From the NCBI GenBank assembly GCA_028718785.1, contig JAQULB010000003.1:8788-72787 (forward strand): a stretch of DNA of 64,000 bases, given 5' to 3'. Numbering within the stretch: the stretch's first letter is position 1; every line of letters begins with the position of its first letter. The notes below the pieces were generated by a model, which was not told the DNA's origin, made no database searches, and saw only the letters and a list, made by a program, of their open reading frames with translations. The position numbers were made by a program, and so were the translations under genes. Shown piece by piece: positions 19,684 through 46,405 of this stretch. The DNA comes from Minisyncoccota bacterium (GTDB lineage Bacteria > Patescibacteriota > Minisyncoccia > Minisyncoccales > CG1-02-41-26).

Positions 19684-19699
19684 AAGAGCTCTGATATAG

Positions 19700-24631: not shown

Positions 24632-24668
24632 TTTTGTGGCAAATTTTATTTTGAGGAGTTGAGCGATT

Positions 24669-25016: not shown

Positions 25017-25285
25017 AGTTTTCATCTCAAGCACAAAGGGATTGGAAAAAGCTGAAAAAGAAGATCGGGAAAGATGCAGAATCAGACTTTAACAAGTCTA
25101 TTGAGGCTATAGCAAATAATCCGTTAAGCGGAAAACCGCTACAAGAAAACTTATCAGGTCATTATGGGTTCAGATTTGGCGGGCATTATAGGATCGTGTA
25201 TGAAATTCTAGAGGATGATAAAGGAAAATTCGTTTCTATATGTGCGGTTGATGACAGGAAAAACATATACAGGAAGCGTTTATAA
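24986..25285 (+). CDS. RelE/ParE-family type II toxin
   Basis: IEFSSQAQRDWKKLKKKIGK...LSGKPLQENLSGHYGFRFGGHYRIVYEI matches the RelE/ParE consensus (kpL.g.l.g.yrlRvGdYRiiY). The exact start is uncertain. Confidence 0.6.
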   Translation: MGRISKRTRIEFSSQAQRDWKKLKKKIGKDAESDFNKSIEAIANNPLSGKPLQENLSGHYGFRFGGHYRIVYEILEDDKGKFVSICAVDDRKNIYRKRL

Positions 25286-25303
25286 AATTGGGCAAAAATA
25301 ACT

Positions 25304-26563: not shown

Positions 26564-26573
26564 GGTTTGAATC

Positions 26574-27419
26574 ATGGCAAATATGTCAAATAATGATAAA
26601 ACAAAGCTTGAGGCTCTGTTCGGAATGCGCAGCGGGTATGTCTTGGATTTTTCAGGCAACACTTTCCAAGATTTTATCCATGACAGCACTGGTTTAGATA
26701 TTTTTGATTCGAAGTATAATCATTTTAGTGGTTCTAAGGCAAATAGGCTTCGTGCTTTTTGGCAAAAGGAATCAGATAACATAGTTGGGAAATTAATTGC
26801 AGACCTATTAGAATATTGGAAAACACAAAAGGAAGTAAAAGGTAATGAAATAGAGGAAATTGAGCAAAAGCTTTATGGCGATTGCATAAATATTTCAAAA
26901 AGATTACTCGGTGAAAGACAAGAGTATATCGATCAGCAAAATGTTACCGAAGATGATTTTCTCAATAAGGAATTCCAAGAAATATCTTTAGAGAAACTCG
27001 GTTTAGAAAGTGTATTTACTAATGTATTGAATCAGAGAATGGATGAAATAAAGAGGTGTCTGGGTGCAAAAGCATCTTTGGCTGCGATTTTCCTATGTGG
27101 AAGTATACTTGAAGGTATATTACTGGGTTTTGTGATAAAGAAACCAGAAGAATTCAATCGAGCAATCCTTAGTCCTAAAGATAAAAATGGCAAAGTGTTA
27201 CAATTTCATGAATGGAAGCTAAGTAGTCTTATAGATGTTTCCCATGAAGTAGGTTTACTTGGGGATGATGTAAAGAAGTTTAGTCATGCCCTACGCGAAT
27301 TTAGGAATTATATCCATCCATACCAACAAGCTAGTTCAGGGTTCAATCCTGATGGGCATACTGCCAAAATATGTTGGCAAGTACTCAAGGCTGCGATTAG
27401 CGATTTATCTAAGGTATAA
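26574..27419 (+). CDS. HEPN-like (Abi-type RNase-like) protein embedded between hsdS and hsdR
   Basis: C-terminal HALREFRNYIHPYQQ resembles the HEPN R-x-x-R-N-x-x-x-H motif of Abi_2-like proteins. It sits in the position that anticodon nucleases occupy in prr-type loci. Confidence 0.35.
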   Translation: MANMSNNDKTKLEALFGMRSGYVLDFSGNTFQDFIHDSTGLDIFDSKYNHFSGSKANRLRAFWQKESDNIVGKLIADLLEYWKTQKEVKGNEIEEIEQKLYGDCINISKRLLGERQEYIDQQNVTEDDFLNKEFQEISLEKLGLESVFTNVLNQRMDEIKRCLGAKASLAAIFLCGSILEGILLGFVIKKPEEFNRAILSPKDKNGKVLQFHEWKLSSLIDVSHEVGLLGDDVKKFSHALREFRNYIHPYQQASSGFNPDGHTAKICWQVLKAAISDLSKV

Positions 27420-27425
27420 TCATTT

Positions 27426-30400: not shown

Positions 30401-30545
30401 TATAAAAGAAAGCATTCAAGCGAAGCTTCGGGTCATTGTCCGCCGAACACTACGCCAATACGGTTATCCACCGGATCAACAGTTATTAGCTACTGAGAAT
30501 GTGTTGAAACAGGCAGAACTTTTCGCGGATGATTGGAGTGATTAG
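27426..30545 (+). CDS. hsdR: Type I restriction enzyme R subunit (helicase-nuclease)
   Basis: 1039 aa. SF2 motifs HTQGSGKS (Walker A) and [12 protein letters not shown] (DEAH). N-terminal nuclease region. Confidence 0.85.
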
Positions 30546-30664
30546 CTAAAACCTTTTTGTTCTAATAATAACGTCGGATTGATAATACAAATTCATCAGA
30601 AAATAATGGTTGAAAGATTTATCTTAGTATAATCACATTCTTAATAATTAAGGATTGATATAAC

Positions 30665-31819
30665 ATGCATAATAATTCACAGACTATAAAGCCTCGAGTT
30701 TTTGTGAGTTCTGTTCTAGAGGGTTTTAAAGAATACCGAGAGGTAGCCCGTCAGTCTATAATTAATATTGGAGGAGAGCCGATACTTGTTAATGAGGACT
30801 TTCCATCGTTAATAAGTTCATCAAGGAATGTTTGCTTGGATGCAGTTGATAGCGCAGATGCTCTTGTTGTGATTGTTGGTGAACGCGGTGGATGGAAAAC
30901 CCCATCAGGAAGATTAGTTATTGAAGAAGAATACGATCGAGCACGTTATAAAAAACTGCCCATACTTGTTTTCATTCAAGATATAAAACGTGAGCCAGAG
31001 GCACAGAGATTTACGAATGAAATATCTGATTACATTGATGGGTTATTCCGGGTTACTTTTCGATCACCAGTAGAACTTAAGGCTGAAATAGAAAAGGCTC
31101 TAAAATCATTATTCCCCGTCTTAAAGGTGAAAGCTATGGATGATCATTTATTGATACAATTTTTAAAAAATCCTTATTCTGTCGCAAATGAAGCAAGCGT
31201 GCGTTTTATTATTGCTCCGGAACGAGATGAAGAGGTTATCGATCCTGTTGTTCTTGGGTCAGAAGATTTTGTCGAAACAATACTTGAGTTAGGGCATTCA
31301 AAGAAAGTCAGAATTTTTGATTATTTAAGACCAAAAAAGCATTGGATTGATGGGCAATCGCTATTTATTCATCAATTTGACCCATCAGGATTAAGAAAAG
31401 AAACTGTTAACGAAGTACGTCTGGAAATCTTAGAATCAGGTTTAATGATCATTGATTCAAATGTTACCTGTCGCGTGATTAGAGGGCAACTACATTCTTT
31501 GTTAGACTCTTGTGTTGTTGCAGAGGAAGATATTAGAGCAGTATTAAATACTTGCTTTCAATTTACAGGTGCTTTGTTTGATTCTATCGATCAGTTTAAA
31601 AGACATAATCGCTTTATGTATAATGCTGCATTAGTGAATATAGGAACTCGTGTATTAGTCAAGGAACCCAAAGAGCAAAATTCCTATTCTCTCAACATGC
31701 CAGGTCATAATCAACCCATTATTGCATTTGATAGTCCACGTTTATTGATACGATCTGATCTTATGCTTCCTAAAAATGAGATAGAAAGAGCGATTGTTAT
31801 TTTTTCACGCAAAATCTAA
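30665..31819 (+). CDS. DUF4062-like N-terminal domain protein (defence-island-type), with a C-terminal domain of unknown function
   Basis: N-terminal RVFVSSVLEGFKEYREVARQSIINIGGEPILVNEDFPS...DALVVIVGERGGWKTPSG fits the DUF4062 pattern (kVFiSSt...Re...i...gh.pv..e.f.a...cD..v.iig.rYG). Confidence 0.4.
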   Translation: MHNNSQTIKPRVFVSSVLEGFKEYREVARQSIINIGGEPILVNEDFPSLISSSRNVCLDAVDSADALVVIVGERGGWKTPSGRLVIEEEYDRARYKKLPILVFIQDIKREPEAQRFTNEISDYIDGLFRVTFRSPVELKAEIEKALKSLFPVLKVKAMDDHLLIQFLKNPYSVANEASVRFIIAPERDEEVIDPVVLGSEDFVETILELGHSKKVRIFDYLRPKKHWIDGQSLFIHQFDPSGLRKETVNEVRLEILESGLMIIDSNVTCRVIRGQLHSLLDSCVVAEEDIRAVLNTCFQFTGALFDSIDQFKRHNRFMYNAALVNIGTRVLVKEPKEQNSYSLNMPGHNQPIIAFDSPRLLIRSDLMLPKNEIERAIVIFSRKI

Positions 31820-31864
31820 GAATCCCATCTGTTTTGAGAACAACCCGGAGGTTATTGAGTCATT

Positions 31865-32572
31865 ATGATGATTAAAGATATTTATCCACCAATTGAAACA
31901 GCTATGGAATTAGAGCCAGAAGAATTGGCTCCTTTTGTGTTAAAAGATTTAGCAGATCAAAGGAGACTTAATCGGCATAATTTTACTTTAGGAAATAGTC
32001 CTGATTTTATCGAATATGCTGGTAATTATCGGGAGGAATTTTGTAAAAGACTTATGGAAGCTTGGATTTGGCTTGAAAAGGAAATGTTTATTGCACCAAT
32101 GCCGGGCGGTGGTGGCACGGATGAATTCTTTATTACTCGCAAAGGTAAAAAGATTCTTGATGAGCAGAATTTTGAATCATATAAAAAAGCGTCATTACTG
32201 CCATCAGAGAATCTTGACCCAATTTTAGTAAGAAAAGTAAAACCATTGTTTATAAGAGGAGACTATGACACCGCAATATTTCAAGCCTTCAAAGAAGTTG
32301 AAATAAGGGTTAGAGATAAAGCAGGATACACAGATAATGAAATAGGCGTTGCTCTTATGAGAAAGGCTTTTAAGCCAGATAATGGACCTCTTGCAGACCA
32401 GTCTTTAGAAGCTAGTGAAAAGGAAGCGATAGTTGCTCTTTTTGCGGGATCTATAGGCAAGTTTAAGAATCCATCAAGTCATAGAGATGTAGAATATACT
32501 GATCCGGGTGAGGTTGTCGATATAATTCATATAGCGAACCAGTTATTACGAATTTGTGATCGCTGTAGATAA
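31865..32572 (+). CDS. Hypothetical protein, possibly HEPN-like (TIGR02391/Ymh-like) at the C-terminus
   Basis: C-terminal ...FAGSIGKFKNPSSHRDVEY is weakly reminiscent of the HEPN RN..H motif (K replaces R). Low certainty. Confidence 0.3.
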   Translation: MMIKDIYPPIETAMELEPEELAPFVLKDLADQRRLNRHNFTLGNSPDFIEYAGNYREEFCKRLMEAWIWLEKEMFIAPMPGGGGTDEFFITRKGKKILDEQNFESYKKASLLPSENLDPILVRKVKPLFIRGDYDTAIFQAFKEVEIRVRDKAGYTDNEIGVALMRKAFKPDNGPLADQSLEASEKEAIVALFAGSIGKFKNPSSHRDVEYTDPGEVVDIIHIANQLLRICDRCR

Positions 32573-32652
32573 AATTTATGAAATGTTTTTGGAGAGCTTT
32601 CAAAAGAAATAACAGTATCAAATATTTATTTTATAGTTAGGTTTTAAGGAAA

Positions 32653-34788
32653 ATGCGGAAATCCGAAAAAATGTGTACTAATGAGATAATCAATGCTATT
32701 GAAGATTTGGCGAAGGAACCAGGATTTATATATTCCTTGGCAATAATATTGCAGCGAGACCAATTTTTAGACCCCGAAGAAGTAGCTGATATCAACTGGC
32801 ATGAACGGCTAATTTTCCAAGAGTTATCTTTTTTGGTTGGTCTAATGGTTAAAAATAAAATAGATTATTCTGTAATACCAACAGAAAACACTTTAACTAA
32901 TCAAATCAATAGGACTTATGAATTATTTCAGAAGTTGCATGAAAATCATTTGGCAATATTTGCGGATAAGCTTTCGAAGAAATATAAACAAAGTGTAGAG
33001 GATCAGAATGCTGAGGATAATTATAAAGATTTCATGGGAAACGGGGAATTAATGGCAGAGCCAATTTTTTATGGTGATTCTGGTGCCTATGATTTTCAAT
33101 ATTTGGAATTTGCACAGAAGAAATATAAAAATGACGAAACATGGATATATAAAAATAAAGGTATTACACTATCCATAGTGTCCAATATATATGCAACGTT
33201 AAAGAAACTTAGCGAAGAGAGGTGGCAGAATTTCCAAATACCGGAAAAATTTGAGGAACTCTGCAAGTCATCTCTATCAGTTTTTTGCTTTAACCAAAAA
33301 GATTTGGAATATTTTGATGTTGATGCTGTTAAAAATTTCATCAAAGCTTTTTCGGTAATTCCTGGTACTGTTAATCAAAATCTGAATTCTGTTGGGATGT
33401 ATAATGCTATTGATTCTCATCCTATAGTTACTCTTGCAGAGAATCTTTATTTTTTACCTGTGGGATTCAATTTTTCGCGATCCATCTACGAAAGTCCTTT
33501 TTACTGGATGAGTGACGATGATCTATATAGAGACACTGCTTTTAATAATAGAGGCGAGTCAGCTGAAAATATTGTCTATGAAATTTTGGAAGATATCTTT
33601 GGGAAGGAAAATGTCTACAAAGAAGTAAAGGTTTGTAGAAACAGGCAAGATTTAACAGATATTGACGTATTGGCCATAGCTGGCAATAAAGCCGTTATTG
33701 TGCAGGCGAAATCAAAAAAGCTTACGGAGCTATCTAAAAAGGGAGATGAGGCAAGGTTAAGAGCAGACTTCAAAGAAGCTGTTCAAAAGGCTTATAATCA
33801 AGGTTTGATCTGTCGTTCAGCAATTATAGACAAGAAAAATGATTTAGTAACAGAAGATGGTAAGAAACTTTATCTCAGTGAATTTATTGACGATGCCTAT
33901 ATTATCTGTATAACACTGGATCACTACCCAGCAATAACTCATCAATCGGATATTTATCTAGAGAAACAGCCACAGGATCCATACCCTTTAGCAATGAGTA
34001 TTTTTGATTTAGACATTATTGCTTTTTACTTAAAAGATCCTTTTGATTTTTTATACTATATAAGGCAAAGAGTTGCGTTAAGCTCTTATTATGAAGCGAA
34101 TTCGGAATTAGTGTTGTTAGGGAGTCATCTCAGACAAAAGCTATTTCCAAATCCTGATGTAGATAGGGAAGCTTTGGACGATGGATTTGCTCAACTAATA
34201 GATGCAAATTTTCCAGCTATGCGTGGTTATCAGCCAAAAACAAGTGCGGTAGAGAAATTACATCATCAATGGAAGAATGAGAAGTTTGAAAAACTTATTA
34301 ACCAGATAAAGGCAATAAAACAGCCGGGTCTTACAGATGCCCTGTTTTTCTTATATGATTTGGCTGGTAAGGGAGCTGATGATCTTATCTCCTGGATCGA
34401 AAAAACCATAGATAAAACCATACAAGATGGACGAATGCATTCTTTATCTATGGGTTTTGAAAACGGGAAAAGTGGAGTTTCTTTTATCTGTTTGCCAAAT
34501 TTTTCGGAAAAAATAAAAACACAGTTGGTGAGTTTTGCTTTAGCTAAAAAATATAAAACAAAGGCTGATATGTGGCTTGGTCTATGCTCTATTGCAGGGA
34601 GTTCTAATATTGTCGATGCTGTAACTTTTAACAATCAACCATGGGTAGAGGATAGCAACCTAGAAGAAATTTCTAAAATTGCTCTAAAAGCTGGTGTAAG
34701 AGCTGATTTGGATATTAAAAAAATCGGCAGAAATGATCCATGTATTTGTGGAAGCGGAAAAAAATTCAAGAAATGTTGCGGTAGATGA
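32653..34788 (+). CDS. Large protein with a PD-(D/E)xK / NERD-like nuclease motif and a C-terminal SEC-C zinc-binding motif
   Basis: ESAENIVYEILEDIF...LTDIDVLAIAGNKAVIVQAKSKK carries an E...D...QxK nuclease-like signature. C-terminal NDPCICGSGKKFKKCCGR matches the SEC-C motif. Confidence 0.45.
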   Translation: MRKSEKMCTNEIINAIEDLAKEPGFIYSLAIILQRDQFLDPEEVADINWHERLIFQELSFLVGLMVKNKIDYSVIPTENTLTNQINRTYELFQKLHENHLAIFADKLSKKYKQSVEDQNAEDNYKDFMGNGELMAEPIFYGDSGAYDFQYLEFAQKKYKNDETWIYKNKGITLSIVSNIYATLKKLSEERWQNFQIPEKFEELCKSSLSVFCFNQKDLEYFDVDAVKNFIKAFSVIPGTVNQNLNSVGMYNAIDSHPIVTLAENLYFLPVGFNFSRSIYESPFYWMSDDDLYRDTAFNNRGESAENIVYEILEDIFGKENVYKEVKVCRNRQDLTDIDVLAIAGNKAVIVQAKSKKLTELSKKGDEARLRADFKEAVQKAYNQGLICRSAIIDKKNDLVTEDGKKLYLSEFIDDAYIICITLDHYPAITHQSDIYLEKQPQDPYPLAMSIFDLDIIAFYLKDPFDFLYYIRQRVALSSYYEANSELVLLGSHLRQKLFPNPDVDREALDDGFAQLIDANFPAMRGYQPKTSAVEKLHHQWKNEKFEKLINQIKAIKQPGLTDALFFLYDLAGKGADDLISWIEKTIDKTIQDGRMHSLSMGFENGKSGVSFICLPNFSEKIKTQLVSFALAKKYKTKADMWLGLCSIAGSSNIVDAVTFNNQPWVEDSNLEEISKIALKAGVRADLDIKKIGRNDPCICGSGKKFKKCCGR

Positions 34789-34889
34789 GATACACATTTG
34801 ATAGACACTATCTAGCTAATATCTGATATTGGGGTCCTTTGCATAAAACCCCAGATAGTGATTTTGTCATAGCTTGTTTTTGATGAGTT

Positions 34890-35170
34890 CATCAAGGAGC
34901 TACGAGACAGGACAGTAGTATCGATGGATAACTCGACATTCCATAACAGTGAAAGCATTTGAGATGAAGATACCAGAATGGCAAAGTAAAGGACTGGAGA
35001 TATTTTATCTGCCGAAATATTCACCTCAACTAAATCTCATAGAGATTCTGTAGCGTTTCATGAAATATGAGTGGATAGAGTGTTGGGCATACAAGGGATG
35101 GTCATATCTTGTGGAATACGTCGAAATGGTTATTCGCGGATACGGAACTGAATATGAAATTAATTTTGGC
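34890..35170 (+). pseudogene. Remnant of an IS630/Tc1-mariner-family transposase (C-terminal DDE region only, with an internal stop)
   Basis: Translates to ...DNSTFHNSESI*...LEIFYLPKYSPQLNLIEIL*RFMKYEWIE, which matches the IS630 consensus DNasiH...LPpYSPdLNPIE. There is no upstream N-terminal part. Confidence 0.55.
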
Positions 35171-35501
35171 TAGGTACTTATAATTTAGAGGACTAATTTT
35201 ATAAAAAAGGTAAAATATATTTTGGAAGTATACGTGCCAGGTAGTGCCGATGATGTTTGGGTTACTTTCGAAACGTCAGAGCCGATATTAGGAATTAGTA
35301 AAGGAGATATATTAAATCCTGGGATTTGGGAAAATACACAATCTCCTATGAAAGTGCTAAAGGTGGTGAATTTAGAGCATTTAATTTGGGATGTCAAAGC
35401 TGAAAATTGTGTCAAACATAAACTAATGATTTTTACCAAAGAAGTCGAAGGAACTAGAAAATTGAGAATAGATGAATGACTATTCCTAAAAGGAAATTGG
35501 G

Positions 35502-35853
35502 ATGACTAAAAAAGAGACTAGAGAATCTGCGATGGATTTTGTAGAAGAACATGAGAGGAAGCGAGGTACGTTTATACGAAGGGTGGATAAAGATAAGGCA
35601 GAAGTTGGGATAGATATTTTATCTTCGGACAGGAGGATCGAGGTTAAGGGAAGAACAGGTACTGATAACTTTGTTCAGATGAATGATAAAAATGTGGAAT
35701 CCTGAAAACAACATGATAATTTTTGGTTATATATAGTTCATTTTGACAAATATGGTAATCCTAAATTAGCGACTTTGTCAAAAGAGCAGGTCTTGCAAAG
35801 ATGTAAGCCTCTTGAATGGTGGGAAATTCCTTTCAGAAAAGCCGATTTTAAGT
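35502..35853 (+). pseudogene. DUF3883-like (PD-(D/E)xK) domain gene interrupted by an in-frame TGA
   Basis: ...DRRIEVKGRTGTDNFVQMNDKNVES*KQHDNFWLYIVHFDKYGNP... The frame continues 49 codons past the TGA to the TAA at 35853. TGA is used as a stop elsewhere (hsdM, 36128 ORF), so recoding is unlikely. Confidence 0.35.
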
Positions 35854-36127
35854 AAGAAGTATTTTATGTAATAGGCAAAAACTCCATCATTCAAGGGAAA
35901 AAATAAATAGTATAACTTTTTGCTTGACGTTTGTAAATAAACGTGGTAGAAGATTGAGTATCTATATTATTGGAATGTCATATTGATCTCTGTGGCGATA
36001 TTTTAGCTTTCTTTGAAGAGAAAAACAATGATAAATACATGGGTTCTTTTCTTATATCTCGCTTAAAAACTATTTGGTTATATCACACTGTCCGTCTTTT
36101 ATGCATTTAGGGGAAGCCTAATAAACA

Positions 36128-37330
36128 ATGACTACAAACGTAAACAATCCCTTTTCTGCGAGTGCTTCGGTACTTGGTTATATGTATCAAATTCGGTATG
36201 CCTTACTGGAAAGTTTAAAACGATTACGAAAGAGTGAGGAATTCACCGTTTCTATTGAGACGTTAGACGATGTCGCTTTCGAGCCAGAAGGGGAACCAAT
36301 CGAATTATTGCAAACGAAACATCATATTAATCAATCCGCTGACTTAACGGACGCATCCCTAGACTTGTGGAAGACAATTAGGATATGGTGTGAAGGCATA
36401 ATTAATAATACTATTCCAAACGATGCCTTGTTTTTTCTGATCACCACAGCACAAGCGGCTGGAGGCAGTGCTGCTTTCTACCTCAAAACAGGTGAACCAC
36501 AGGACGCAGATAAAGCTCTTGAGCGATTAGTATCCACTGCTGAATCATCGACAAGTTATTCTTTACATCCTGCCTTTACCGCGTTTAAAAGATTAAATTA
36601 TGAGCAAAGAAAACAACTGGTTCAAAATGTGATTTTGGTTGATTGTGCCCCAACAATCACAGACCTTGATGTTGCGCTCAAAGAAGCGGTGTTTGGCTTT
36701 ACTGACAAACAATTCCTTGATTCATTTCTTCAGAGATTTGAGGGTTGGTGGTATCGTCGGTCAATAAAGCATTTAGCTGATGATCAAACTCAGCCAATAC
36801 TCAGCGAAGAATTAGAAGCCGAGGGGTCCCGCCTGCGAGAACAGTTCAAATTGGATTCCTTACCTATTGACGATGACATCATGTCTGCCAGCGTAGACGC
36901 TTCTGGATATGAAAATAAGGTATTTGTTCAACAGCTACGCCTTATTGAAATTGGCAACCCACGTATCCTACATGCAATTCGGAATTACTTCAGAGCCTTT
37001 GAGCAAAGATCACGATGGATACGAGAAGACCTTATTCTCGTTGGGGAACTTGATCGCTACGAAGACAAATTGGTGGAGGAATGGGAAATCTACTTTGAGC
37101 AAATGCGAGATGAAATTGGAGACGACGCAACAGAGCAGACCAAGAAAGAAGCAGCCCAAGCTCTATATAAATGGGTGGAGACCGGTTGCCATCATACAAT
37201 CCGACAAGGCGTTACAGAGGCGGCTATTTCACGCGGTTCTTATCAGATACTTTCTGACTGTCAAAAAGTCGGTTGGCATCTCAACTTTGCTGAACGCATA
37301 CGGCAGATTTTAGAGAGTAAGGAGACCTGA
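36128..37330 (+). CDS. Lamassu/ABC-3C effector-like protein (LmuA/DdmA-like, possible Cap4-type nuclease domain)
   Basis: First gene of a tightly coupled trio. N-terminal GYMYQIRYALLESL and ETLDDVAFEPEGEPIELLQTKHH are reminiscent of DUF4297/Cap4-type nuclease N-termini. Its stop TGA is 3 bp before the next ATG. Confidence 0.45.
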   Translation: MTTNVNNPFSASASVLGYMYQIRYALLESLKRLRKSEEFTVSIETLDDVAFEPEGEPIELLQTKHHINQSADLTDASLDLWKTIRIWCEGIINNTIPNDALFFLITTAQAAGGSAAFYLKTGEPQDADKALERLVSTAESSTSYSLHPAFTAFKRLNYEQRKQLVQNVILVDCAPTITDLDVALKEAVFGFTDKQFLDSFLQRFEGWWYRRSIKHLADDQTQPILSEELEAEGSRLREQFKLDSLPIDDDIMSASVDASGYENKVFVQQLRLIEIGNPRILHAIRNYFRAFEQRSRWIREDLILVGELDRYEDKLVEEWEIYFEQMRDEIGDDATEQTKKEAAQALYKWVETGCHHTIRQGVTEAAISRGSYQILSDCQKVGWHLNFAERIRQILESKET

Positions 37331-37333
37331 TTT

Positions 37334-37831
37334 ATGAAGCCTTGGTCCGAACGTTCCATTGAGGAAGCCAACCTTTTGAATCCAGCCTTCTGTTGCGCAG
37401 CTCTGGCAATGTCAATTGCTGGATATTCCGGTGTTAATGATGCAGGTATGCCATATCCATTGACCTTTATGGTTTTGCCAATCGTTCTTCACAAACAAAC
37501 ACGAGAAAGTCTTCCGCCATCTACGAGGACATCGCTTGCGGTTTGGATGCAAAATAACGCCGATGCCAAGGTTCTTTATGCGGAAAGATTGTTGTCACTA
37601 AAACCTTATACTCGAGAAGCAATCCAATTCGGACTGCTTTATGATTGGATTGCGCTACGTCATGGTTGGTTAGTGCAAACTACCTTTGAGGAGTCTATAT
37701 CAGCTCGAATACTTCAAAATCTCGATAATGAAGCAAAGGATTGTGTGTCTCGTGCAAAGCTTGTCGGGAAATGGTTTGCTTTGGCAGGATCGGCTCAAAC
37801 TGTAATGAATTTGTGGGGAATCCGTATATGA
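37334..37831 (+). CDS. Small middle component (LmuC/DdmB-like) of the trio
   Basis: 165-aa ORF wedged between the effector and ATPase genes. Its stop overlaps the next start (ATGA). Confidence 0.4.
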   Translation: MKPWSERSIEEANLLNPAFCCAALAMSIAGYSGVNDAGMPYPLTFMVLPIVLHKQTRESLPPSTRTSLAVWMQNNADAKVLYAERLLSLKPYTREAIQFGLLYDWIALRHGWLVQTTFEESISARILQNLDNEAKDCVSRAKLVGKWFALAGSAQTVMNLWGIRI

Positions 37832-39783
37832 GTTTTCAAATATCGGATATTATTCTTTACGGCTTTAATGGACAGAAACGCGTAATCACTCTCCGTACCG
37901 GACAGTTGAATATCATCACAGGTGCATCTAAAACTGGCAAAACGGCACTTATTGAGATCATTGACTACTGTCTTGGTAGCGATGAATGTAGAATCCCCGC
38001 GGGAATTATTCGCAAAGCTGTTGAGTGGGTTGGTGTACGTCTCCAGATAGAAGCAGGTCAGGCATTTGTTGCACGGCGTTTGCCAGGTCCTGGTCGGAAT
38101 GCCTCTTCCGATATTTTCTATGATGTTCGTAACTTCATTGAAATACCTGAGCGAGTTGAATTAAGGCAAACAATTAATGATGTAGCATTAAGAGCTATTC
38201 TCTCTCAATATGCAGGAATAGGAGAAAACATTCATTATCCACCGGAAGGAAATAATAGACGTTCGTTGACAGCCAATATCCGTCATGCACTTTACTTTGC
38301 ATTCCAGCAACAAGCCGAGGTATTAAACAATCGCCTCTTGTTTCATAATCAGGGCGAACCATTTATCCCACAGGCTATCAAGGATATACTTCCGTATTTT
38401 CTTGGAGCTGTTGACGACGACTATGTTGCTAAGGTGACTAAACTACGAGACCTTCGATATAAACTCAGGGGATTGGAACGTAGGCTTTCTGAGTATGAAG
38501 CAGTCCGGGGGGAAGGAGTATCTCTTGCGCAATCTCTGCTTGTCGAGGCAATGGACATCGGGTTGCCTGGAGCGGAAATGCCCGTTGAAGATTGGAATGA
38601 ATGCATTGAGATATTGAAACGTATTCAAAGCCAACCTCCGGAACCAGAAGACGAACTCGCATCTGAAAACAATGCCTACAACCAGTTACGAAGGACAAAG
38701 TTGGAATTGGAAAGCGAGTTGCAACGAGTCAAATCTCAGATGCAGGCAGCAGAAGCATTGAACTCAGAAGGACAAGGATATTCTCATGAAGCACAAGCCC
38801 AATTGCATAGACTTCGGAGTATTGAACTTTTTGAAGAATCTGAACAAGGCGTTCCAAGATGCCCATTATGTGAATCTGAACTTTCTAATGTTTCGTTACC
38901 AGGATTAGAGCAAATGCGCCAGTCTGCCCAATGTTTAGATTCGCAGATTCGGACAATTGAAGATCGTTCTCCGCAAATGAATGAAGTAGTGAGAAAGTTA
39001 CGTGGACGATTCGATGATGTAAAACGGCGTTTACACGAAAACCGTGAAGAAATGGATGCAATCCAAGCTTCGGATCGTCGCCTTCAAGGCATGCGTGACC
39101 GTTCATCTCGACGTGCTCATATTCTTGGTCGAATCAGCCTTTACCTTGAAAGCCTTCCTCATATTGAGGATACAAGTGAACTAAAGCTGGAAATCGCGGC
39201 ATTGCAGAGCAAAATCAGTGGGCTTGAAAAAGAATTAAGCGATGCCACTGTGCAAGAACGGTTAGATTCAATCTTGTCAATCTTAAGCCGTGATATGAGT
39301 CAATGGGCATGTGAGTTGCAGTTAGAACACTCAAAATTCCCATTGCGACTCGATTTAAGGAAACTAACAGTGGTCGCTGATACAGCAGATGGTCCCATCC
39401 CCATGAATCAAATGGGAAGTGGAGAAAATTGGGTTGGCTATCACTTGATCGCGCATTTTGCCTTACATAAATGGTTTGTGAAGAGAGGTCGACCACTGCC
39501 CCGCTTTATTTTTATTGACCAACCATCCGAAGTGTATTTCCCTGCGGATCAAGAAGTGAATGGTGGCAGAATAGACGGTGAGAATGAAGACAGGAAAGCT
39601 GTTGCACGTATGTATAAATTAGCACTAGACGTTGTAAATAATCTGTCTCCAGAATTCCAAATCATAATGACAGACCATGCCGACCTCGCTGAAAAATGGT
39701 TTCAAGATTGTATTATAGAGCGTTGGAGGGACGGAATTAAATTGGTACCTGAATCATGGATACCAGGAGATACCAAAATTTGA
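37828..39783 (+). CDS. SMC/RecF-like ABC ATPase with a long coiled-coil insert (LmuB/DdmC-like, DUF3732-type)
   Basis: N-terminal Walker A ITGASKTGKTALIEI. About 300 aa of coiled coil (...LESELQRVKSQMQAAEAL...EIAALQSKISGLEKELSD). C-terminal Walker B/D-loop RFIFIDQPSEVYFP. Start reassigned to the ATG at 37828, which overlaps the upstream stop. Confidence 0.6.
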   Translation: MSFQISDIILYGFNGQKRVITLRTGQLNIITGASKTGKTALIEIIDYCLGSDECRIPAGIIRKAVEWVGVRLQIEAGQAFVARRLPGPGRNASSDIFYDVRNFIEIPERVELRQTINDVALRAILSQYAGIGENIHYPPEGNNRRSLTANIRHALYFAFQQQAEVLNNRLLFHNQGEPFIPQAIKDILPYFLGAVDDDYVAKVTKLRDLRYKLRGLERRLSEYEAVRGEGVSLAQSLLVEAMDIGLPGAEMPVEDWNECIEILKRIQSQPPEPEDELASENNAYNQLRRTKLELESELQRVKSQMQAAEALNSEGQGYSHEAQAQLHRLRSIELFEESEQGVPRCPLCESELSNVSLPGLEQMRQSAQCLDSQIRTIEDRSPQMNEVVRKLRGRFDDVKRRLHENREEMDAIQASDRRLQGMRDRSSRRAHILGRISLYLESLPHIEDTSELKLEIAALQSKISGLEKELSDATVQERLDSILSILSRDMSQWACELQLEHSKFPLRLDLRKLTVVADTADGPIPMNQMGSGENWVGYHLIAHFALHKWFVKRGRPLPRFIFIDQPSEVYFPADQEVNGGRIDGENEDRKAVARMYKLALDVVNNLSPEFQIIMTDHADLAEKWFQDCIIERWRDGIKLVPESWIPGDTKI

Positions 39784-40019
39784 AAATTATCATCATTTGT
39801 GTTTTTGTTTTTGAAAAAATGGCTTATTTAAAAATCCACTAAAAGTATATACTTTGGAGATATGTTCTCACCTGATGCTACTTATGTGACATTATAAGAC
39901 TGAGCGAAATGGCCCATTTTTTGCTTTACAAGGATGGCAATTTATGTTACAATACGCCATAATATGAATATGAACGTTCAAATAGCGTTCTAATAGCATT
40001 CTATGAACGCTTTTTATTT

Positions 40020-40520
40020 TTGGGAGATTATATATCAATGAGCCATTTTGGTCCATTGACTAGACATCAAGCTGAAACTTTAGCAGCCATAGTTAGGTAT
40101 TCTAAAAACAATGGAGACCGGGTACCCAAACCAAAAGATTTGGCTCCAATTCTTGGAATTACGGAGATTGCTGCAAAAGGACGCATTTCAAGACTTAAAA
40201 AGTATTTTGTCGAGGGAGTTACTCCCTTAAGAGTCAATGTCGAGCAATTATGCACAATAAGCACATCTGCTTTATTTTTTCTTGCAGTTCGATCTATGAG
40301 TCTTGAAGACAAAAAAGATGGAAGGGTTTTTAAATCCAGCCTTTTTGAAAAACTAACTTGCCAACATAAAGACATCTTCAATAATGACCTACTTGAAAAT
40401 CTCTGGAAAAAGGGTATAGAAGCGGGATATATTATCAACGATCCATATGAATCCGAAGCCATAAGACCTGGCGAATTATTGACAGATCAACTCGAATATC
40501 TGAAATTGATTGCAAGTTGA
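40020..40520 (+). CDS. Hypothetical protein with a possible wHTH
   Basis: ORF. LAPILGITEIAAKGRISRLKKY is HTH-like. Confidence 0.3.
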   Translation: MGDYISMSHFGPLTRHQAETLAAIVRYSKNNGDRVPKPKDLAPILGITEIAAKGRISRLKKYFVEGVTPLRVNVEQLCTISTSALFFLAVRSMSLEDKKDGRVFKSSLFEKLTCQHKDIFNNDLLENLWKKGIEAGYIINDPYESEAIRPGELLTDQLEYLKLIAS

Positions 40521-40796
40521 TATTTACTTATTTATGATTAAGAAAAATGAGAAATAAACCGAAGGTGTTTGATGGTTTTAATTTTTATTACAGGATACGT
40601 TTCTGACTATTATCTGTAATCTAACCAGATATAACAGGCGTTTTTATGTCAGTGTCTCTGAGATTAACTTCTTGATAAAGCAATTTTAATATTTTATAAT
40701 TTATCTAGAACGTCAAAATTGAAAATGTCATTATAAACATTTGATTGTTTGTGTTAGAACTTGTTTGTTGTAGGGAGATAAGGAGGGAAAGGGAAA

Positions 40797-41198
40797 ATGG
40801 CAGAAGTATCAATACGGGAAAGTATATTTAGCTCACCAAACATAGGTTTCTCAACGACGTGCGAGTGGATTCTCGTCAAAATTATTAGTTCATTTAGATA
40901 TGGTGCTACAGCCGATCAAGTTTGGGATTGTGTTGAAACGCTGTTAGATGTGTTGCGTAAAATGGGGAAACCTTTTTTCTTTTGGCTAGGTCCGGGGATA
41001 AATGTAAAGGGTGTTTTAGCCCGAATGGAAAGTCAGGGTATTTTGATCAATCATAATCCCCAAAATTTATATATTATGGCTAGAGACGGAGAGGAATCTC
41101 TTAAAGATTGGATTGATGATATGGTTAAAATATTAAATTTACCCGATGTTGCGGAGTTAGATCGAATAATACTTTCATGCGTTAGTGATAAAGAATAG
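40797..41198 (+). CDS. Hypothetical protein (133 aa)
   Basis: GGAGGGAAAGGGAAAATG RBS context. No motifs. Confidence 0.35.
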   Translation: MAEVSIRESIFSSPNIGFSTTCEWILVKIISSFRYGATADQVWDCVETLLDVLRKMGKPFFFWLGPGINVKGVLARMESQGILINHNPQNLYIMARDGEESLKDWIDDMVKILNLPDVAELDRIILSCVSDKE

Positions 41199-41324
41199 GA
41201 AAATGACTTTTTCGAGTTTTTATAAAGGGCTGACAAATATGGTTAGCCCTTTATTTTTTTATATTTTGCAAGAGTTTTTACAAACAGGACTTATCCTATG
41301 AATTAGATAATGGAGGCACAATAA

Positions 41325-43406
41325 GTGAGAGTTATCAGAGACCCTATTCATAAATACATTTCGTTAAGTGATTTGGAACTTGAAATTATTGAAACACCTT
41401 ATTTTCAGCGTCTGCGTTATATCAAACAAAATGCAACTGCTTATCTTACTTATCCTACTGCTGTTACTAGCCGATTCGATCATAGTTTAGGCGTAATGCA
41501 TATTGCAGGTAGGATGATTAGTTCCGCTCTGGAATTGAGTGCTCCAAAAGATATTAAAAATTTCTTTATTAAATGCAAGGGTGATTTTGGCAAAGAATAT
41601 AGCAAATTAAAAGATGAGCAACTTAAATATATAATTATTTCTTTAGTTCGCTTACTTGGATTATTGCATGATATTGGTCATCTGCCTTTTTCCCATACGG
41701 GTGAAGATGCGATAGATTTTCCTGATTTTTTAAGGTTGATATATAGAGAAGATGAGCATAAGGAAATAATATATTTGCATAACCAATATGGATTGCATTT
41801 GCATGAATATAATACCCTCAAAATTATTGAGAGCGAGTCTATGCGTGGAAAATTTCAATCCGTTAAAGAAGACTTGTTAGGAAAGAAATTCAAGGACAAA
41901 TGTTATATATATGATTTAATACTAATGACTTTAGACCCAAGAAAAAGGAGAAAATTTAGTGTATTTGAGACATTAGTACAAATTGTTAGTTCCAATCTGG
42001 ATGCTGATCGTGCTGATTTTTTGCTTCGTGATGGAACCATCAGTGGAGCTGGTTTCGGTGCATATGACATAGATCGTTTTATAACAACACTTAGGTTATT
42101 CAATCGCAAGGAAACAAAGGAATTCCTAATACGCCCATTATTTACTGGAATCAGTGCTATAGAGACGATGCTAATTGAACGCTATAAACTATATAAGTGG
42201 CTATATTTTCACCACTATGTTGTTTTTACTGATATGGCTGTAGAAAAACTGATTAAATCAATGCTTAAAGCAGTAGTGATAGATTCAGATTTTGCTGAAA
42301 GATTGGATATTGATATTAAACGGTTTCATTATGCTAATTTTGTTAAAGATGGTATATTTCTTGATGATACTTATATTTGGCATAAATTCAACAAATTCCT
42401 ATATTTGTTAGAAAACGAGCGAAAAATAGCAAGAGAAAATTCCAATGATTTGTCCAAAGGACTTTCATTATTCACTATAAATTTAGATGTGCAAAACATT
42501 ATAAATGAGTTAAATTCTGGGCAATTAAAAAGCCTACGGGAGCAATTTAAAGATGGAGATATTTTATCTTCCAATAGTATAAAAGTCTATACTCCTATAG
42601 AATTAAAAGAAACATGGTTGGTAATTCATGAAAGTGATGAGGAAACAGAATACAAAGTTTTGTGTGTAATCAAAAAAGAAGAGGATAAGTTATGCGTTTA
42701 CGATCCAAGATACAAACTGATCCCTCTCGAAAAGCGAGATAAAGATATAGCAGTAAGTCTTCTCCGTATCGTTTTACACAGGCGTAAGTTGGGTAGTGCA
42801 TTGTGGAAGGACACCCAGCAATATAAAGAGGTTAATAGAGATATAAAAAGTGTGATTAGGGATGCTTTCGAAAAGAAATACTGCAAAAAATATCCTAGTC
42901 AATCAGAAACAAGCTTTGATGATGAGTTTGAGGAAAGGATTAAAGAAGGTACATTTATACTTAACTATTTTGCGGAATTTTTTCCTTCCGACAAGAAGGA
43001 ATTGATTAATGATGTTGAAGAAAACTGGCTTAATAAAACTAACCAAGACTGCCACTTATCCATTCAAATTAAGCGATTCAAACCATACGGGGATTATGAA
43101 ATTATAACAAGAAAAAACGATTTAACTACGCTTAATGAGTGTTCTGAAATCGTGCAAGGGTTGGATGATGCTTGGAGTAAAGATGTTCATATGTATTTAT
43201 TTTTATTCTTTTTCGACAATTTTACTAGAGTGGCAACTGGAATAAAGATGGGGCAAATAAAGAAAGCTATGATAAAGACTTTCGCTAAATCGCTAGGTAG
43301 CTGGTACAAAGATGCCAAAGCAATGAAAAACGTTTTGTGGAAAACAGACATGTTACCTAAAGAAACAAATACCCAAATTAAGGATAAAGCAAAAATTGAA
43401 GATTAA
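41325..43406 (+). CDS. HD-domain dNTP/dGTP triphosphohydrolase-like protein with a long C-terminal extension
   Basis: RFDHSLGVMHIAGRM ... LLHDIGHLPFSHTGE is the dGTPase-type HD signature. At 693 aa it is much longer than housekeeping Dgt. Confidence 0.6.
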   Translation: MRVIRDPIHKYISLSDLELEIIETPYFQRLRYIKQNATAYLTYPTAVTSRFDHSLGVMHIAGRMISSALELSAPKDIKNFFIKCKGDFGKEYSKLKDEQLKYIIISLVRLLGLLHDIGHLPFSHTGEDAIDFPDFLRLIYREDEHKEIIYLHNQYGLHLHEYNTLKIIESESMRGKFQSVKEDLLGKKFKDKCYIYDLILMTLDPRKRRKFSVFETLVQIVSSNLDADRADFLLRDGTISGAGFGAYDIDRFITTLRLFNRKETKEFLIRPLFTGISAIETMLIERYKLYKWLYFHHYVVFTDMAVEKLIKSMLKAVVIDSDFAERLDIDIKRFHYANFVKDGIFLDDTYIWHKFNKFLYLLENERKIARENSNDLSKGLSLFTINLDVQNIINELNSGQLKSLREQFKDGDILSSNSIKVYTPIELKETWLVIHESDEETEYKVLCVIKKEEDKLCVYDPRYKLIPLEKRDKDIAVSLLRIVLHRRKLGSALWKDTQQYKEVNRDIKSVIRDAFEKKYCKKYPSQSETSFDDEFEERIKEGTFILNYFAEFFPSDKKELINDVEENWLNKTNQDCHLSIQIKRFKPYGDYEIITRKNDLTTLNECSEIVQGLDDAWSKDVHMYLFLFFFDNFTRVATGIKMGQIKKAMIKTFAKSLGSWYKDAKAMKNVLWKTDMLPKETNTQIKDKAKIED

Positions 43407-43472
43407 ATAAATCCATTTGAACTTTTATAGGAGTGGAGTGACCCCATTTTTCACCTGATTCTTTCTACTAAT

Positions 43473-44180
43473 TCAAATTTGAATATTGTACTGTGCCCAC
43501 GGGTATAGCATATTATGGCCTCCAGCTATGGCAATTTCCATGCCTCGCTTGGCATGGCTTTGACCCTGTATCCAGTGCCACTGAATTTCAAAGTTATTAT
43601 TTATTTGAAAATCGTTTGTTTCTGTTTCAAAGGGTTTTATATCAACCCGGCCATCAAGGTAAGATAAGGTTTGTTGAAGATTTTCAACTGGAATAATTTT
43701 TATTTTATTTTGAGGGCTCAACAAGTTGGCAACCGAGGCCTCTTTGGCGTTTTGAGCGGGTAAAATAATTTCTTCAAAGTTATTTTCTTTAGCTAATAAA
43801 GCAAAAGAAAAAGCTCCTTTTATGGGCTTTAGTTCTGCGTTTAACGCTAACTCTCCAAGAATTAATTTTTTATTGGGAACAAATTTTGTTTGTTGAGTGG
43901 CCAATAGATAGGCCAAGGCAATTGATAGATCAAAATGGCTGCCTTCTTTTTTTAAATCCGCTGGGGATAAATTAACAACCACTTTTTTTGTTTGAGAAGT
44001 GGGGGAAGAGAGACAAATATTTTTTATGGCTGAGGCCACTCTTTCTTTGGCTTCTGCGATTGATTTATCAGCCAATCCCACAATAATAAAATTTCTCAGA
44101 CCTTGATTAACCGAAACTTCCACTTCAATAAGGGTTGCGTTTATTCCCCACAAAACGGCTGAAAAAGTTTTAGCAAACAT
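43473..44180 (-). pseudogene. comM: comM/yifB (Mg-chelatase-like competence ATPase) N-terminal fragment, truncated just where the AAA+ domain begins
   Basis: MFAKTFSAVLWGINATLIEVEVSVNQGLRNFIIVGLADKSIAEAKERV is a YifB N-terminal Lon-like domain. The ORF ends ...IQGQSHAKRGMEIAIAGGHNMLYPWAQYNIQI*, immediately after the GGHN that normally precedes the Walker A. The composition shifts at this point. Confidence 0.6.
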
Positions 44181-44185
44181 GTTAG

Positions 44186-44325
44186 AAGTCGTTAATGAAT
44201 GAGTCCGCCTCAGGCGGGCGAGTGAATTTATGAATTCTTACACCTTGTGAAGTAGAAATTTGTTCTACAAATTTCTGTTTCAAATTTTTTACTAAAAATT
44301 TGAAACTACTTCACGGGGTAAATTT
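44186..44325 (+). repeat. Nested-palindromic repeat family, copy 1 (short variant, inner hairpins in swapped order)
   Basis: CGTTAATGAATGAG-[ccgcctcaggcggg]-CGAGTGAATTTATGAATTCTTACACCTTGTGAAGTAG...CTACTTCACGGGGTAA, with compensatory GTGAAGTA/TACTTCAC pairs. Confidence 0.7.
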
Positions 44326-44348
44326 GTTGATTTAATAATACTCTAAAA

Positions 44349-45599
44349 TTACTCTTGAGGTTTTTGTTTTTGGTCTTCTGGTTCGGTTTCTGTCTCAGCA
44401 TCTGCCCCCAACTCTTCAATATCTGCTGTTTGTTCTTTGGGAATTTCGTTAGCGTTTAATTGACTAACGCTACGCACATCAATTTTCCAGCCAGTGAGCT
44501 TGGCGGCCAACCGCACATTTTGTCCTTCTTTGCCAATAGCTAATGAAAGCTGGTCGTCTGGAATAATGGCTTGAGCTTTATTTTTTGGCAAGATTTTAAC
44601 TTCTAAAACCTTGGCTGGTGATAAGGCATTGGCAATAAATTTTTCTGGAAGTTCGTCCCAAATAATAACATCAATTTTTTCTCCGCCAAGTTCGTTGGTA
44701 ACAGCAATAATTCTTGTGCCTCGTTGCCCCACCAAAGAACCGATTGGGTCAATGCCATCTTCCAAGGCCTCAACAGCCACTTTTGACCTAAACCCAGCTT
44801 CTCTGGCAATAGCTCGAATAGCCACTTGATTGGCGCCAATTTCTGGCACTTCAAGCTCAAAAAGCTTGGAGATAAGCTTGGGATAAATTCTGGATAAAAC
44901 AATTTGAGCGCCTTTGGGCGTGTTTTCAGTTTTTAAAACAAAAAGTTTCATTCTTTGTCCGGGCTTGTAATATTCGTTGGGAGCTTGCTCTTTTTTGGGC
45001 AAAATGCCAGAAGTTCGGCCAATGTCAAAAAATACAGCCATTGGCTCAACTCGTTGCACAATACCCGAAACCACCTCTCCTTCTTTGTCTTTAAATTCTT
45101 TAAAGGTTTCTTCTTTTTCAATTTCTTTTATTTTTTGCAAAATAACTTGTTTGGCTGTTTGAGCGGCAATTCGGCCAAAATCATCTTTGGCCTCTAATGG
45201 CAAGCTAACCTCATCGCCCACCTTGGCGTTTTCGTCAATTTCTTTGGCTTCGTTTAACATAATATGCCTTTCGGGATTAAATCTGATTTTTCCACCCTCT
45301 TCATCTTCGAATTCTTCATTTGGGTTAATTTCTCCGGTTTCTCTTTTTTGTTTTATTTCTTCAATTTCTTCTTCTGATAAAATAATGGATTCATCAACTA
45401 CTTCTTTTTCTTGCCAAAAATCAAGACGCCCGGATTTTAAATCCAGCTTGGCTTTTATTTTTTGCTTTTTTTTGCCGTATTCTTTTTTGTAGGCACTGGC
45501 AATGGCCTCGGTGATAACATCAATTATTTTGTTTTCGGGAATACCCCGCTCTTCAGCGATTTCTAAAATAGCTGAGCCCAAATTTTTTAAATCTAACAT
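44349..45599 (-). CDS. nusA: Transcription termination/antitermination factor NusA, with an acidic C-terminal tail
   Basis: [39 protein letters not shown]; S1 and KH-like regions (...[18 protein letters not shown]...). Confidence 0.85.
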
Positions 45600-45600
45600 A

Positions 45601-45790
45601 TTAGTAGTTGTTAATGAGCGAGCAATTTTATTGCGAGTGAGTTTACGAATACTTACACCCTGTGGAGTAATTTTAAATTTTTTGCTAAAAATTTAAAATA
45701 GAAATTTGTCCTGCAAATTTCTACTCTACGGGGTAAAATACCCGTAAAACTCAAACTTCGCTAATCGCTCGTTTTCGTTAACGGTTATTT
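45601..45790 (+). repeat. Nested-palindromic repeat family, copy 2
   Basis: GTTAATGAGCGA-[gcaattttattgc]-GAGTGAGTTTACGAATACTTACACCCTGTGGAGTA...CTACTCTACGGGGTAAAATACCCGTAAAACTCAAACTTCGC...TCGTTTTCGTTAACGG. Confidence 0.7.
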
Positions 45791-45964
45791 TAAGAAAATC
45801 GCCCCGTTCTTAATCAGAACCGAGCTTATCTATACTTTATCAAATAAAATAATCTTTGTCAAATTTGTATGGACTGGGTTCAAAAAAAGCGTATCAATCT
45901 GTGCCGACTCGCCTTGCTGGAGCCTTCGGCGTAGCGCAGGTTGGCCAACTTTGACACACTTTAT

Positions 45965-46405
45965 TTAATAATCTCCAATAGCGTTTTTAGTGTGGCGGAC
46001 AATATAATCACTGAGGGTGTTAAAGATAATTGCCACAACATCAATTTGTTGGTCAATATCTAATGGCAGTTTTTTAAAAGATAGGTAAATTTGGGCCATT
46101 TTTTGCAATTGCTTGGTTTTGTGAAAAGTTATTTCATCCTCTGGTAAAAATTCAGATTTTGCGAAGGGCCTGCCCTGAGCAGTTCGGCGTAGCTCACTGC
46201 GAAGGGTTTTTACTTCCACAAAAATAAGCACTCCTTTCTTTTTTGCAATAATATCCAGCTCGCCCCATTTTGTTTTAAAGTTTCTCTCTAAAATTTGATA
46301 ACCCTCTTTTTTTAAATAATTCGTGGCAATATCCTCTCCAACTTGCCCAATTTTTTGCCTCTGGTTTTGCATATTTTGAATTGGTGGACCTGGGCGGAAT
46401 TTCAC
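45965..46405 (-). CDS. yraN: YraN/UPF0102-family endonuclease-like protein
   Basis: ...WGELDIIAKKKGVLIFVEVKTLR... is the YraN signature. Confidence 0.6.
   Translation of the reverse strand: MKFRPGPPIQNMQNQRQKIGQVGEDIATNYLKKEGYQILERNFKTKWGELDIIAKKKGVLIFVEVKTLRSELRRTAQGRPFAKSEFLPEDEITFHKTKQLQKMAQIYLSFKKLPLDIDQQIDVVAIIFNTLSDYIVRHTKNAIGDY

Follow-up and report, generated by a model that had tools for sequence, protein, structure and literature searches.

The gene comM (also called yifB) is a documented target of mobile DNA. Tn7-like AbaR islands and other defence-carrying elements interrupt it in Acinetobacter (PMC11472951), integrase-bearing elements occupy it in Aggregatibacter, Mannheimia, Francisella and Pseudomonas (PMC4774983), and the Wolbachia phage WO sr1 enters a Mg-chelatase/yifB gene by means of a large serine recombinase (LSR) (PMC9203015). 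Targeting of comM is thought to protect such elements from removal by transformation (PMC4774983, PMC11472951), the usual view being that loss of ComM lowers the recombination of heterologous transforming DNA and thereby shields the element from deletion. Here we analyse a 64-kb stretch of contig JAQULB010000003.1 from a Minisyncoccota bacterium, hereafter the window, in which comM breaks off next to a region of mobile and defence genes. A first-pass annotation, made from the sequence alone, had put the right-hand end of the inserted DNA within comM and had pointed out that this gene is an island hotspot in other bacteria, which the work cited above bears out (PMC11472951, PMC4774983). Both junctions of the insert support that central reading, and our comparisons make it very likely that positions 43507-43508 are the crossover of an LSR-catalysed, site-specific integration of a plasmid-like element into comM.

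The locus shares features with several described systems. As with sr1WO of phage WO (PMC9203015), an LSR appears to have split the same gene family into two flanking fragments, and the attachment (att) sites can be rebuilt by joining the flanks. Unlike sr1WO, however, the recombinase is only 27-30% identical to its WO counterparts, the host belongs to the Candidate Phyla Radiation (CPR) rather than to the alphaproteobacteria, and the element is plasmid-like, with no phage genes seen. The AbaR/AbGRI islands (Tn6019/Tn6022 family; PMC11472951, PMC11441513) likewise interrupt the Mg-chelatase/AAA+ part of comM, carry defence or resistance cargo and have reduced curing by transformation as their proposed benefit. 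Those islands move by DDE transposition and duplicate their target site, whereas here a serine recombinase would have made a conservative exchange; neither a duplication nor Tns genes were found. In Firmicutes, LSR-borne elements that split genes include SPbeta (SprA, in spsM), skin (SpoIVCA, in sigK) and A118 (in comK). The present element resembles these in having an LSR at its end, in being inserted within a coding gene and in that precise excision would restore the gene; it differs in phylum and target, in being plasmid-like rather than a prophage, and in showing no evidence of developmentally programmed excision. An attP located within a gene is known from IntP of Myxococcus phage Mx8 and from the integration-dependent immunity of mycobacteriophages. 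It is also known from SSV-type archaeal integrases, where integration alters the gene product (PMC7253208). Here too the recombinase reading frame spans attP, which gives it one 3' end in the free form and another in the integrated form; unlike those cases, which involve tyrosine recombinases or repressors, the enzyme is a serine recombinase and only its last 18 residues are lost. The event is of a known kind, and what is new is the CPR phylum and the plasmid-like backbone. Few CPR integrative elements have been described, and our literature searches turned up no report of one for this family. The locus offers a complete, base-resolved att quartet for a CPR mobile element and adds a third mechanism and phylum to the recurrent targeting of comM.

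The split comM gene and its attachment sites

In what follows, L001-L029 denote related DNA contigs (Logan or other) and P0003-P0243 denote protein records. The minus-strand open reading frame (ORF) at 43473-44180 encodes 235 amino acids (aa), and its first 224 codons are the N-terminal part of ComM/YifB. The ChlI/Lon-like N-domain is complete (PF13541, E = 5e-39); the AAA+ Mg_chelatase model is matched only over positions 4-26 of 207, and against the YifB model TIGR00368 the match covers positions 2-216 of 499 and scores 173 bits, the cutoff being 362. Measured against the definition of ComM/YifB (N-domain, AAA+ Mg_chelatase and Mg_chelatase_C, about 500 aa), the ORF is a fragment. It is 83% identical to relatives across its first 96%, and an identical protein is on record from a Candidatus Pacebacteria metagenome-assembled genome (MAG), on a contig of 160,049 bp. 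Where relatives read ..AGGHNLLLQGPPGTGKT.., the window ORF reads ..AGGHNMLYPWAQYNIQI and stops; the split lies two codons past GGHN, and beyond the comM codons the frame reads on to 43473 through element DNA. Homology to four comM relatives (L002, L003, L004 and L009) ends at 43506-43511 by both tblastx and DNA alignment. To the right of the junction, the order yraN-nusA-comM is kept in L002, L003, L004 and L010, and this side holds nusA, yraN, TGT, the CCA-adding enzyme, PNPase and trigger factor together with all five tRNA genes of the window. To the left, positions 1-43506 showed no homology to the DNA downstream of the intact comM in L002, and a tblastn search with a full-length relative found no comM 3' part anywhere in the window. 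Logan contig L001, from a separate assembly, is 100% identical to window positions 33473-44408, across the junction, which therefore did not arise as an error of a single assembler. The first-pass annotation had described an intact YifB/ComM N-domain in this ORF, its end shortly after GGHN in unrelated sequence, mobile and defence genes on the left with housekeeping genes on the right, and an insert exceeding 43.5 kb whose other comM fragment is not at the window start. Each of these descriptions agrees with our results.

That annotation had also proposed a search for the comM 3' fragment, which was successful. A query with the C-terminal part of a relative's ComM retrieved P0121, a protein of 280 aa, 84% identical, that carries PF01078 and PF13335. 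In the related strain L011, a 555-aa LSR lies directly upstream of the comM 3' fragment, and this recombinase, used as a query in turn, retrieved P0243 (561 aa, 86% identical). P0121, P0243 and the window ORF are each recorded on a Pacebacteria contig of the same size, 160,049 bp. Two Logan contigs, L012 and L013, which are 100% identical to each other and of which L013 comes from the same run as L001, contain in order a gene for an 82-aa HTH_17 protein, the LSR P0243 and, abutting it, comM 3' DNA that translates exactly to P0121. Judged by their sequence, L012 and L013 are the window strain's own second junction. Neither they nor L011 has homology to the window, outside which the P0243 gene lies.

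Comparison of the two junctions with unrecombined sites located the crossover. The dinucleotide CT at 43507-43508 is all that attP shares with both junctions, on the window side and on the recombinase side. Read in the direction of comM, the window junction is ..GGAGGCCATAATATG-CT-ATACCCGTGGGCACAGTACAAT.. (core ..AATATG-CT-ATACCCGTGGGCA), the recombinase-side junction in L012 reads ..ATATTATGCCCACAACACC-CT-TTTACAAGGACCCCCGGGAACAGG.. (core ..CACAACACC-CT-TTTACAAGG), and an example of unrecombined attP reads ..ATATTATGCCTACGACACC-CT-ATACCCGTGGGCACAATACAAC.. (core in L014, ..ACGACACC-CT-ATACCCGTGGGCA). We found attP in eight related loci (L014, L015, L017, L019, L020, L021, L022 and L024), which stem from seven distinct contigs, L014 and L016 being the same contig. 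It consists of the recombinase-side arm and the window-side arm joined at CT. Its sequence, ..TGCCCAC-AACACC-CT-ATACCC-GTGGGCA.., contains a dyad (TGCCCAC-N6-CT-N6-GTGGGCA) that is centred on CT and is split between the two junctions on integration. In some relatives attP has an 11-bp inverted repeat; L019 and L024 have the dyad in the form ATTGTGCCCAC-N14-GTGGGCACAAT. The core is TT instead of CT in some relatives and in L011, indicating that core variants exist. The intact attB of relatives (L002/L010), ..CA(C/T)AACTTG-CT-(T/A)TTACA(G/A)GG.., is positioned at the Leu codon two residues past GGHN, a short way before the Walker A motif GPPGTGKT. The reconstructed attB reads ..GGCCATAATATG-CT-TTTACAAGGACC.. 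and the reconstructed attP ..TGCCCACAACACC-CT-ATACCCGTGGGCAC...

Joined at CT, the comM halves of the window and of L012 yield an in-frame ComM of 515 aa, of which 510 residues align without a gap to the intact 512-aa ComM of L002, at 82% identity. Both halves are free of stops and frameshifts, and the reconstructed protein would be a complete ComM/YifB under the definition given above. The gap-free rejoining argues that the exchange was conservative, without target duplication, and in principle reversible. Alignment to an uninterrupted comM, which had been suggested at the outset as a way to define the att ends, thus led to them through the loss of homology at the junction and the rejoining at CT. 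A search of the window for direct or inverted repeats of the right end returned chance 13-mers only.

Two further contigs with an incomplete comM were considered and set aside. In JAUSHZ01, a relative at 83% identity, comM is broken at another codon, between DVLE and SLRQ (L010 11000-11112, L007 1-150), by an IS481-like element with imperfect terminal inverted repeats of about 27 bp and a GGAA target duplication, the comM halves lying at the ends of two contigs. We rejected this disruption as an instance of the same event, since it is an unrelated IS481-like insertion at a different codon. Contig L005 (JAQURU01; assembled with SPAdes) begins, at query residue 113, at the att core position in comM. 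It overlaps the neighbouring contig of P0003 by about 127 nt, and we rejected it as a junction because the overlap marks a contig break and leaves an insertion unproven. The assembly-graph branch at the core may have arisen because occupied and empty sites were both present in the sample of this Paceibacterota genome.

The recombinase, its tail and a model of integration

P0243 has the domains Resolvase (PF00239), Recombinase (PF07508) and Zn_ribbon_recom (PF13408), and aligns to the solved structure of SPbeta SprA (9dxh) over residues 45-507 and to the catalytic domain of the TP901-1 integrase. A predicted catalytic-serine motif, YCRVS (MRCAIYCRVSTEEQ), was read from the sequence at the N-terminus of both P0243 and P0241. 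The best matches of P0243 in phage collections are the Wolbachia phage WO recombinases mentioned above, and a scan of IMG/VR with the LSR found no relatives. Overlapping the LSR start is the gene for the 82-aa HTH_17 protein, which is of the excisionase type. To our knowledge, recombination directionality factors have no common signature, and this protein is therefore a candidate directionality factor only.

The recombinase ORF crosses attP. In the attP form it ends ..DCDI(M/V)PT(T/V)P-Y(T/A/S/K)(R/H)GHNT(T/A)FRFELVE(R/M/K)IR followed by a stop, and window positions 43451-43507, on the minus strand, correspond to the last 18 codons plus stop of this excised-form recombinase (YTRGHSTIFKFELVERIR). 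The free-form tail of 18 aa, YTRGHNTTFRFELVERIR, is conserved in seven attP loci (for example L014 10748-10831), and P0241 ends ..PYTRGHNTTFRFELVERIR. In the integrated form the tail consists of out-of-frame comM codons: it is FYKDPREQEKPCWQKPLFQ, then a stop, in P0243 (L012 2062-2148), and L011 has another, shorter one. Among eight sequences, the distal 30 nt of the tail have 2, 2 and 9 variable sites at the three successive codon positions, a pattern that fits selection on the peptide and not only on a DNA-binding site. Our literature search found no serine-recombinase case of an integration-altered tail. A speculative and rather doubtful extension of these observations is that the tail swap acts as a sensor of integration state and, together with the restoration of comM, lets the element switch the recombination competence of its CPR hosts reversibly, with the GGHNM Leu codon as a pan-bacterial LSR landing site that conserved DNA ahead of Walker A would define. 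If this were true, the swap might bias the LSR towards integration when the element is free and towards quiescence or excision when it is integrated.

We propose the following model. The attP of a plasmid-like element, whose genes include those for RepA, a relaxase-like protein and coupling proteins as well as a block of defence genes, would have recombined with the attB inside comM. The expected result is the comM 5' half followed by the element in the window and, farther along the same contig past the window start, the HTH_17 gene and the LSR followed by the comM 3' half. The exchange would be conservative, with zero bases gained or lost, and would replace the recombinase tail by out-of-frame comM codons. 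P0243 is the presumed catalyst. Excision by the LSR, presumably with a directionality factor, would restore the intact 515-aa comM, and the element is probably still able to excise. The loss of ComM may benefit the element through less frequent removal by transformation. The evidence for this model comes from the two junctions, the attP of related elements, the intact attB of relatives, the in-frame reconstruction and the LSR domains. Some points weigh against it. The size of the element is only bounded, above 43.5 kb and no higher than about 139 kb, and these bounds as well as its continuity rest on the shared contig size of 160,049 bp. The attP sites compared belong to related elements, in which the LSR is about 86-91% identical and the arm 83%. 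The databases searched contained no empty attB and no excised circle of the same strain, and no directionality factor was identified beyond the HTH_17 candidate. The recombinase and its sites of about 50 bp are defined well enough for a trial as a CPR genetic tool or as a new orthogonal integrase.

Alternative explanations

The source of the window is a metagenome-assembled contig, and mobile elements are a frequent cause of misjoins, so the junction might be an assembly or binning chimera in the MAG. However, L001, from its separate assembly, is identical to the window across the junction, two runs gave the same assembly of the complementary junction, and the att logic is internally consistent; a chimera is highly improbable. 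We give no more credence to a scenario without reversible insertion, in which comM was truncated by deletion or rearrangement or the ORF is a naturally short paralogue. The lack of a comM 3' fragment in the window would suit such an account, and the relative's comM broken by an unrelated insertion sequence indicates that loss of the gene is tolerated. But the 3' fragment lies, undecayed, on the same contig, the two halves meet at one dinucleotide to restore a gap-free ORF, and the non-comM sides of the two junctions together make up the known attP. A naturally short paralogue was one of the findings that the first-pass annotation had named as fatal to its proposal; instead, the 3' fragment was found and rejoins its partner without a gap. 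An insertion by a Tn7-like, AbaR-type transposon, as in Acinetobacter baumannii, is suggested by the status of comM as a classic Tn7-like target in Acinetobacter (PMC11472951) and by the defence cargo, which some comM insertions in that genus also carry. Domain scans of the island covered ORFs of at least 110 aa (six short ORFs overlapping or adjoining longer ones were left out, one of them later searched with NCBIfam only) and revealed no TnsA, TnsB, TnsC, rve or other DDE transposase domains. Moreover, the comM halves join without gain or loss and hence without a target-site duplication, no terminal inverted repeats were found in the window, the other junction has an LSR gene directly beside it, and attP is known in unrecombined form. 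Together these findings leave a Tn7-like origin with next to no probability.

The remaining alternatives concern the enzyme and the nature of the insert. The tyrosine recombinase at 17061-17744 is the only recombinase within the window and is conserved in L020, and it might have integrated the island. It lies 26 kb from the junction, however, and is a short (227 aa), Xer-like protein without an N-terminal arm-binding region. Tyrosine recombinases need an identical overlap of 6-8 bp, whereas attP and attB are identical at the crossover over 2 bp only, and it is the LSR gene that reads straight through attP. We consider integration by this enzyme very unlikely; with its 82% identity to the L020 counterpart it is a backbone gene, and it probably serves as a multimer resolvase rather than having integrated this element. 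A temperate phage resembling Wolbachia phage WO (sr1WO) is an unlikely identity for the insert, although WO sr1 combines the same enzyme class with the same target gene family (PMC9203015) and the WO recombinases, at 27-30% identity, are the best phage matches to P0243. Pfam scans detected no phage capsid, terminase, portal or tail domains in the 43.5 kb of element within the window, PHROG gave no matches for 10 unannotated element ORFs, and IMG/VR held no relatives; the unseen part of the element could hold phage genes. The backbone that is seen comprises RepA, a relaxase-like protein and coupling proteins.

Gene content, composition and related loci

Under that preferred reading, the part of the element within the window has the gene content listed in Table 1.

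Table 1. Features of the window around and to the left of the comM junction
Feature	Position	Strand	Basis and remarks
Integrated plasmid-like element, part	1..43506		Would run past the window start to the HTH_17 gene, LSR and comM 3' fragment
Excisionase-type helix-turn-helix protein	4176-4547	-	NCBIfam excisionase domain; plasmid-like module 4176..10636
RepA	5056-6486		Pfam; partly shared with L021
Replic_Relax relaxase-like protein	6921-7808		Pfam
Second coupling-protein-like ATPase	8834-10636		Pfam
Xer-like tyrosine recombinase, 227 aa	17061..17744	-	Pfam Phage_integrase; NCBIfam XerA/XerD-like below cutoff
Type IV coupling protein, VirD4/TraD-like	21537..22901	-	Pfam and NCBIfam; backbone gene
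Type I restriction-modification (R-M) system: HsdM, HsdS, unannotated ORF, HsdR	23075..30545	+	Pfam
Lamassu / ABC-3C operon: LmuA, LmuC, LmuB	36128..39783	+	PADLOC: LmuA 1e-66, LmuC 9e-17, LmuB 3e-143
HD-domain dGTPase-like protein, 693 aa	41325..43406	+	Pfam HD; weak PADLOC/NCBIfam dGTPase matches; last element gene before the junction
Element-side attP arm	43451..43507	-	Half-site GTGGGCA (plus strand TGCCCAC, 43494-43500); 83% nucleotide identity to the L014 arm
14-bp palindrome ATTCAAATTTGAAT	43471..43484		Inside the recombinase-tail remnant, 23 bp within the element
Crossover central dinucleotide CT (AG on plus strand), very likely	43507..43508	-	Comparison of attP with the window and L012/L013 junctions
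comM/yifB 5' fragment	43509..44180	-	Codons 1-224, to ..AGGHNM; Pfam and NCBIfam
nusA	44349-45599	-	Pfam; conserved chromosomal flank (44349..46405)
yraN/UPF0102	45965-46405	-	Pfam; conserved chromosomal flank

In addition to the genes in the table, the element encodes an amidoligase and an amidotransferase. Pfam CTD7, MC3 and DUF3732 were found in the Lamassu operon, and DUF4062, Ymh and SEC-C proteins also lie in the defence block (23075-43406). Two contigs in attP form, L020 (42 kb) and L021 (50 kb), have the coupling protein, the Xer-like recombinase and part of RepA in common with window positions 5-23 kb. The coupling protein shares 83-89% aa identity with a gene that lies 1-2.5 kb from attP in L020 and L021, as against 20.6 kb from the junction in the window, which argues that the defence block of about 20 kb is cargo inserted beside the attachment site. 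The locus connects a family of 42-50 kb metagenome contigs with RepA and coupling protein in attP form to an integrated form in the chromosome, whose defence genes (type I R-M, Lamassu, HD/dGTPase-like; about 20 kb) travel beside the attachment site. The 43.5 kb of element within the window revealed neither VirB4 nor any other mating-pair gene. Chromosomal type IV secretion systems have been reported in Patescibacteria (PMC12102498), a protein with a type IV secretion system pilin domain is encoded in the core flank at 51958-52617, and the element may be mobilizable through such a host system. On its visible genes it is best described as integrative, plasmid-like and possibly mobilizable, a description that the unseen part toward the recombinase could change. 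The cargo beside the recombinase, upstream of it in L014 and L021, varies among the free-form relatives: L020 (7905-9806) encodes LamG proteins as well as a group II intron reverse transcriptase, L021 carries Rad52, a PD-(D/E)XK nuclease and RuvC, and L014 has a Y-family polymerase, with enolase and a P-type ATPase across attP.

ComM fragments that end right after GGHNML also occur on long contigs of unrelated lineages (P0023, P0045, P0048, P0079, P0086 and P0099). A 616-aa LSR, 22% identical to P0243, abuts the comM break in L029 (10001-12508), and a defence-like island follows the break in L028 (10001-10760). Both junctions read CAYAATATGCTA up to the break, as in the window; very distant LSRs therefore seem to use the same dinucleotide, which suggests that comM contains an LSR landing site shared across many lineages. 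An apparent 'SHN' at the ends of the WOVitA2 record was considered as evidence for use of the same codon and was rejected, because it belongs to the WO recombinase's own tail.

The first-pass annotation had further claimed that composition switches at the junction, with the left side more GC-rich, and had proposed a k-mer or GC profile as a check. For tetranucleotides we correlated 3-kb segments with a reference taken from window positions 50-64 kb. Every segment wholly left of the junction gave r = 0.58-0.91, and from the junction-spanning segment (42001-45000) rightwards r was 0.95-0.96, equal to the leave-one-out values inside the reference. GC and AT skew also flip sign at the junction. 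The switch therefore stands for k-mer composition and skew but not for GC content, and the lack of any compositional break, another outcome that the first-pass annotation had named as fatal to its proposal, did not occur. Mean GC is indeed 39.1% to the left and 36.0% to the right, but within 1-3.5 kb of the junction the element side is the lower one (33% versus 37-38% on the core side), and the GC step there is unremarkable, at the 82nd percentile for 2 kb and the 42nd for 5 kb. A palindrome had been said to sit at the junction, at about 43464. It actually occupies 43471-43484, inside the element, and is a chance, non-conserved feature: the window contains 5 perfect palindromes of at least 14 bp against 6.2 +/- 2.8 expected from Markov-1 simulations, and seven related attP arms lack ATTCAAATTTGAAT and have TTTCGGTTTGAATT and similar sequences instead.

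The highest-GC block of the window, at 11500-18000 (45%, up to 49%), is also the part whose tetranucleotides correlate least with the core. Its end falls at the Xer-like recombinase gene, together with the window's largest GC step, at about 17.5 kb. No family matches were obtained for three of its ORFs, in 14938-17016; the block may be a separately acquired module. Within the core flank, an IS200-like Y1 transposase is encoded at 60395-61108.

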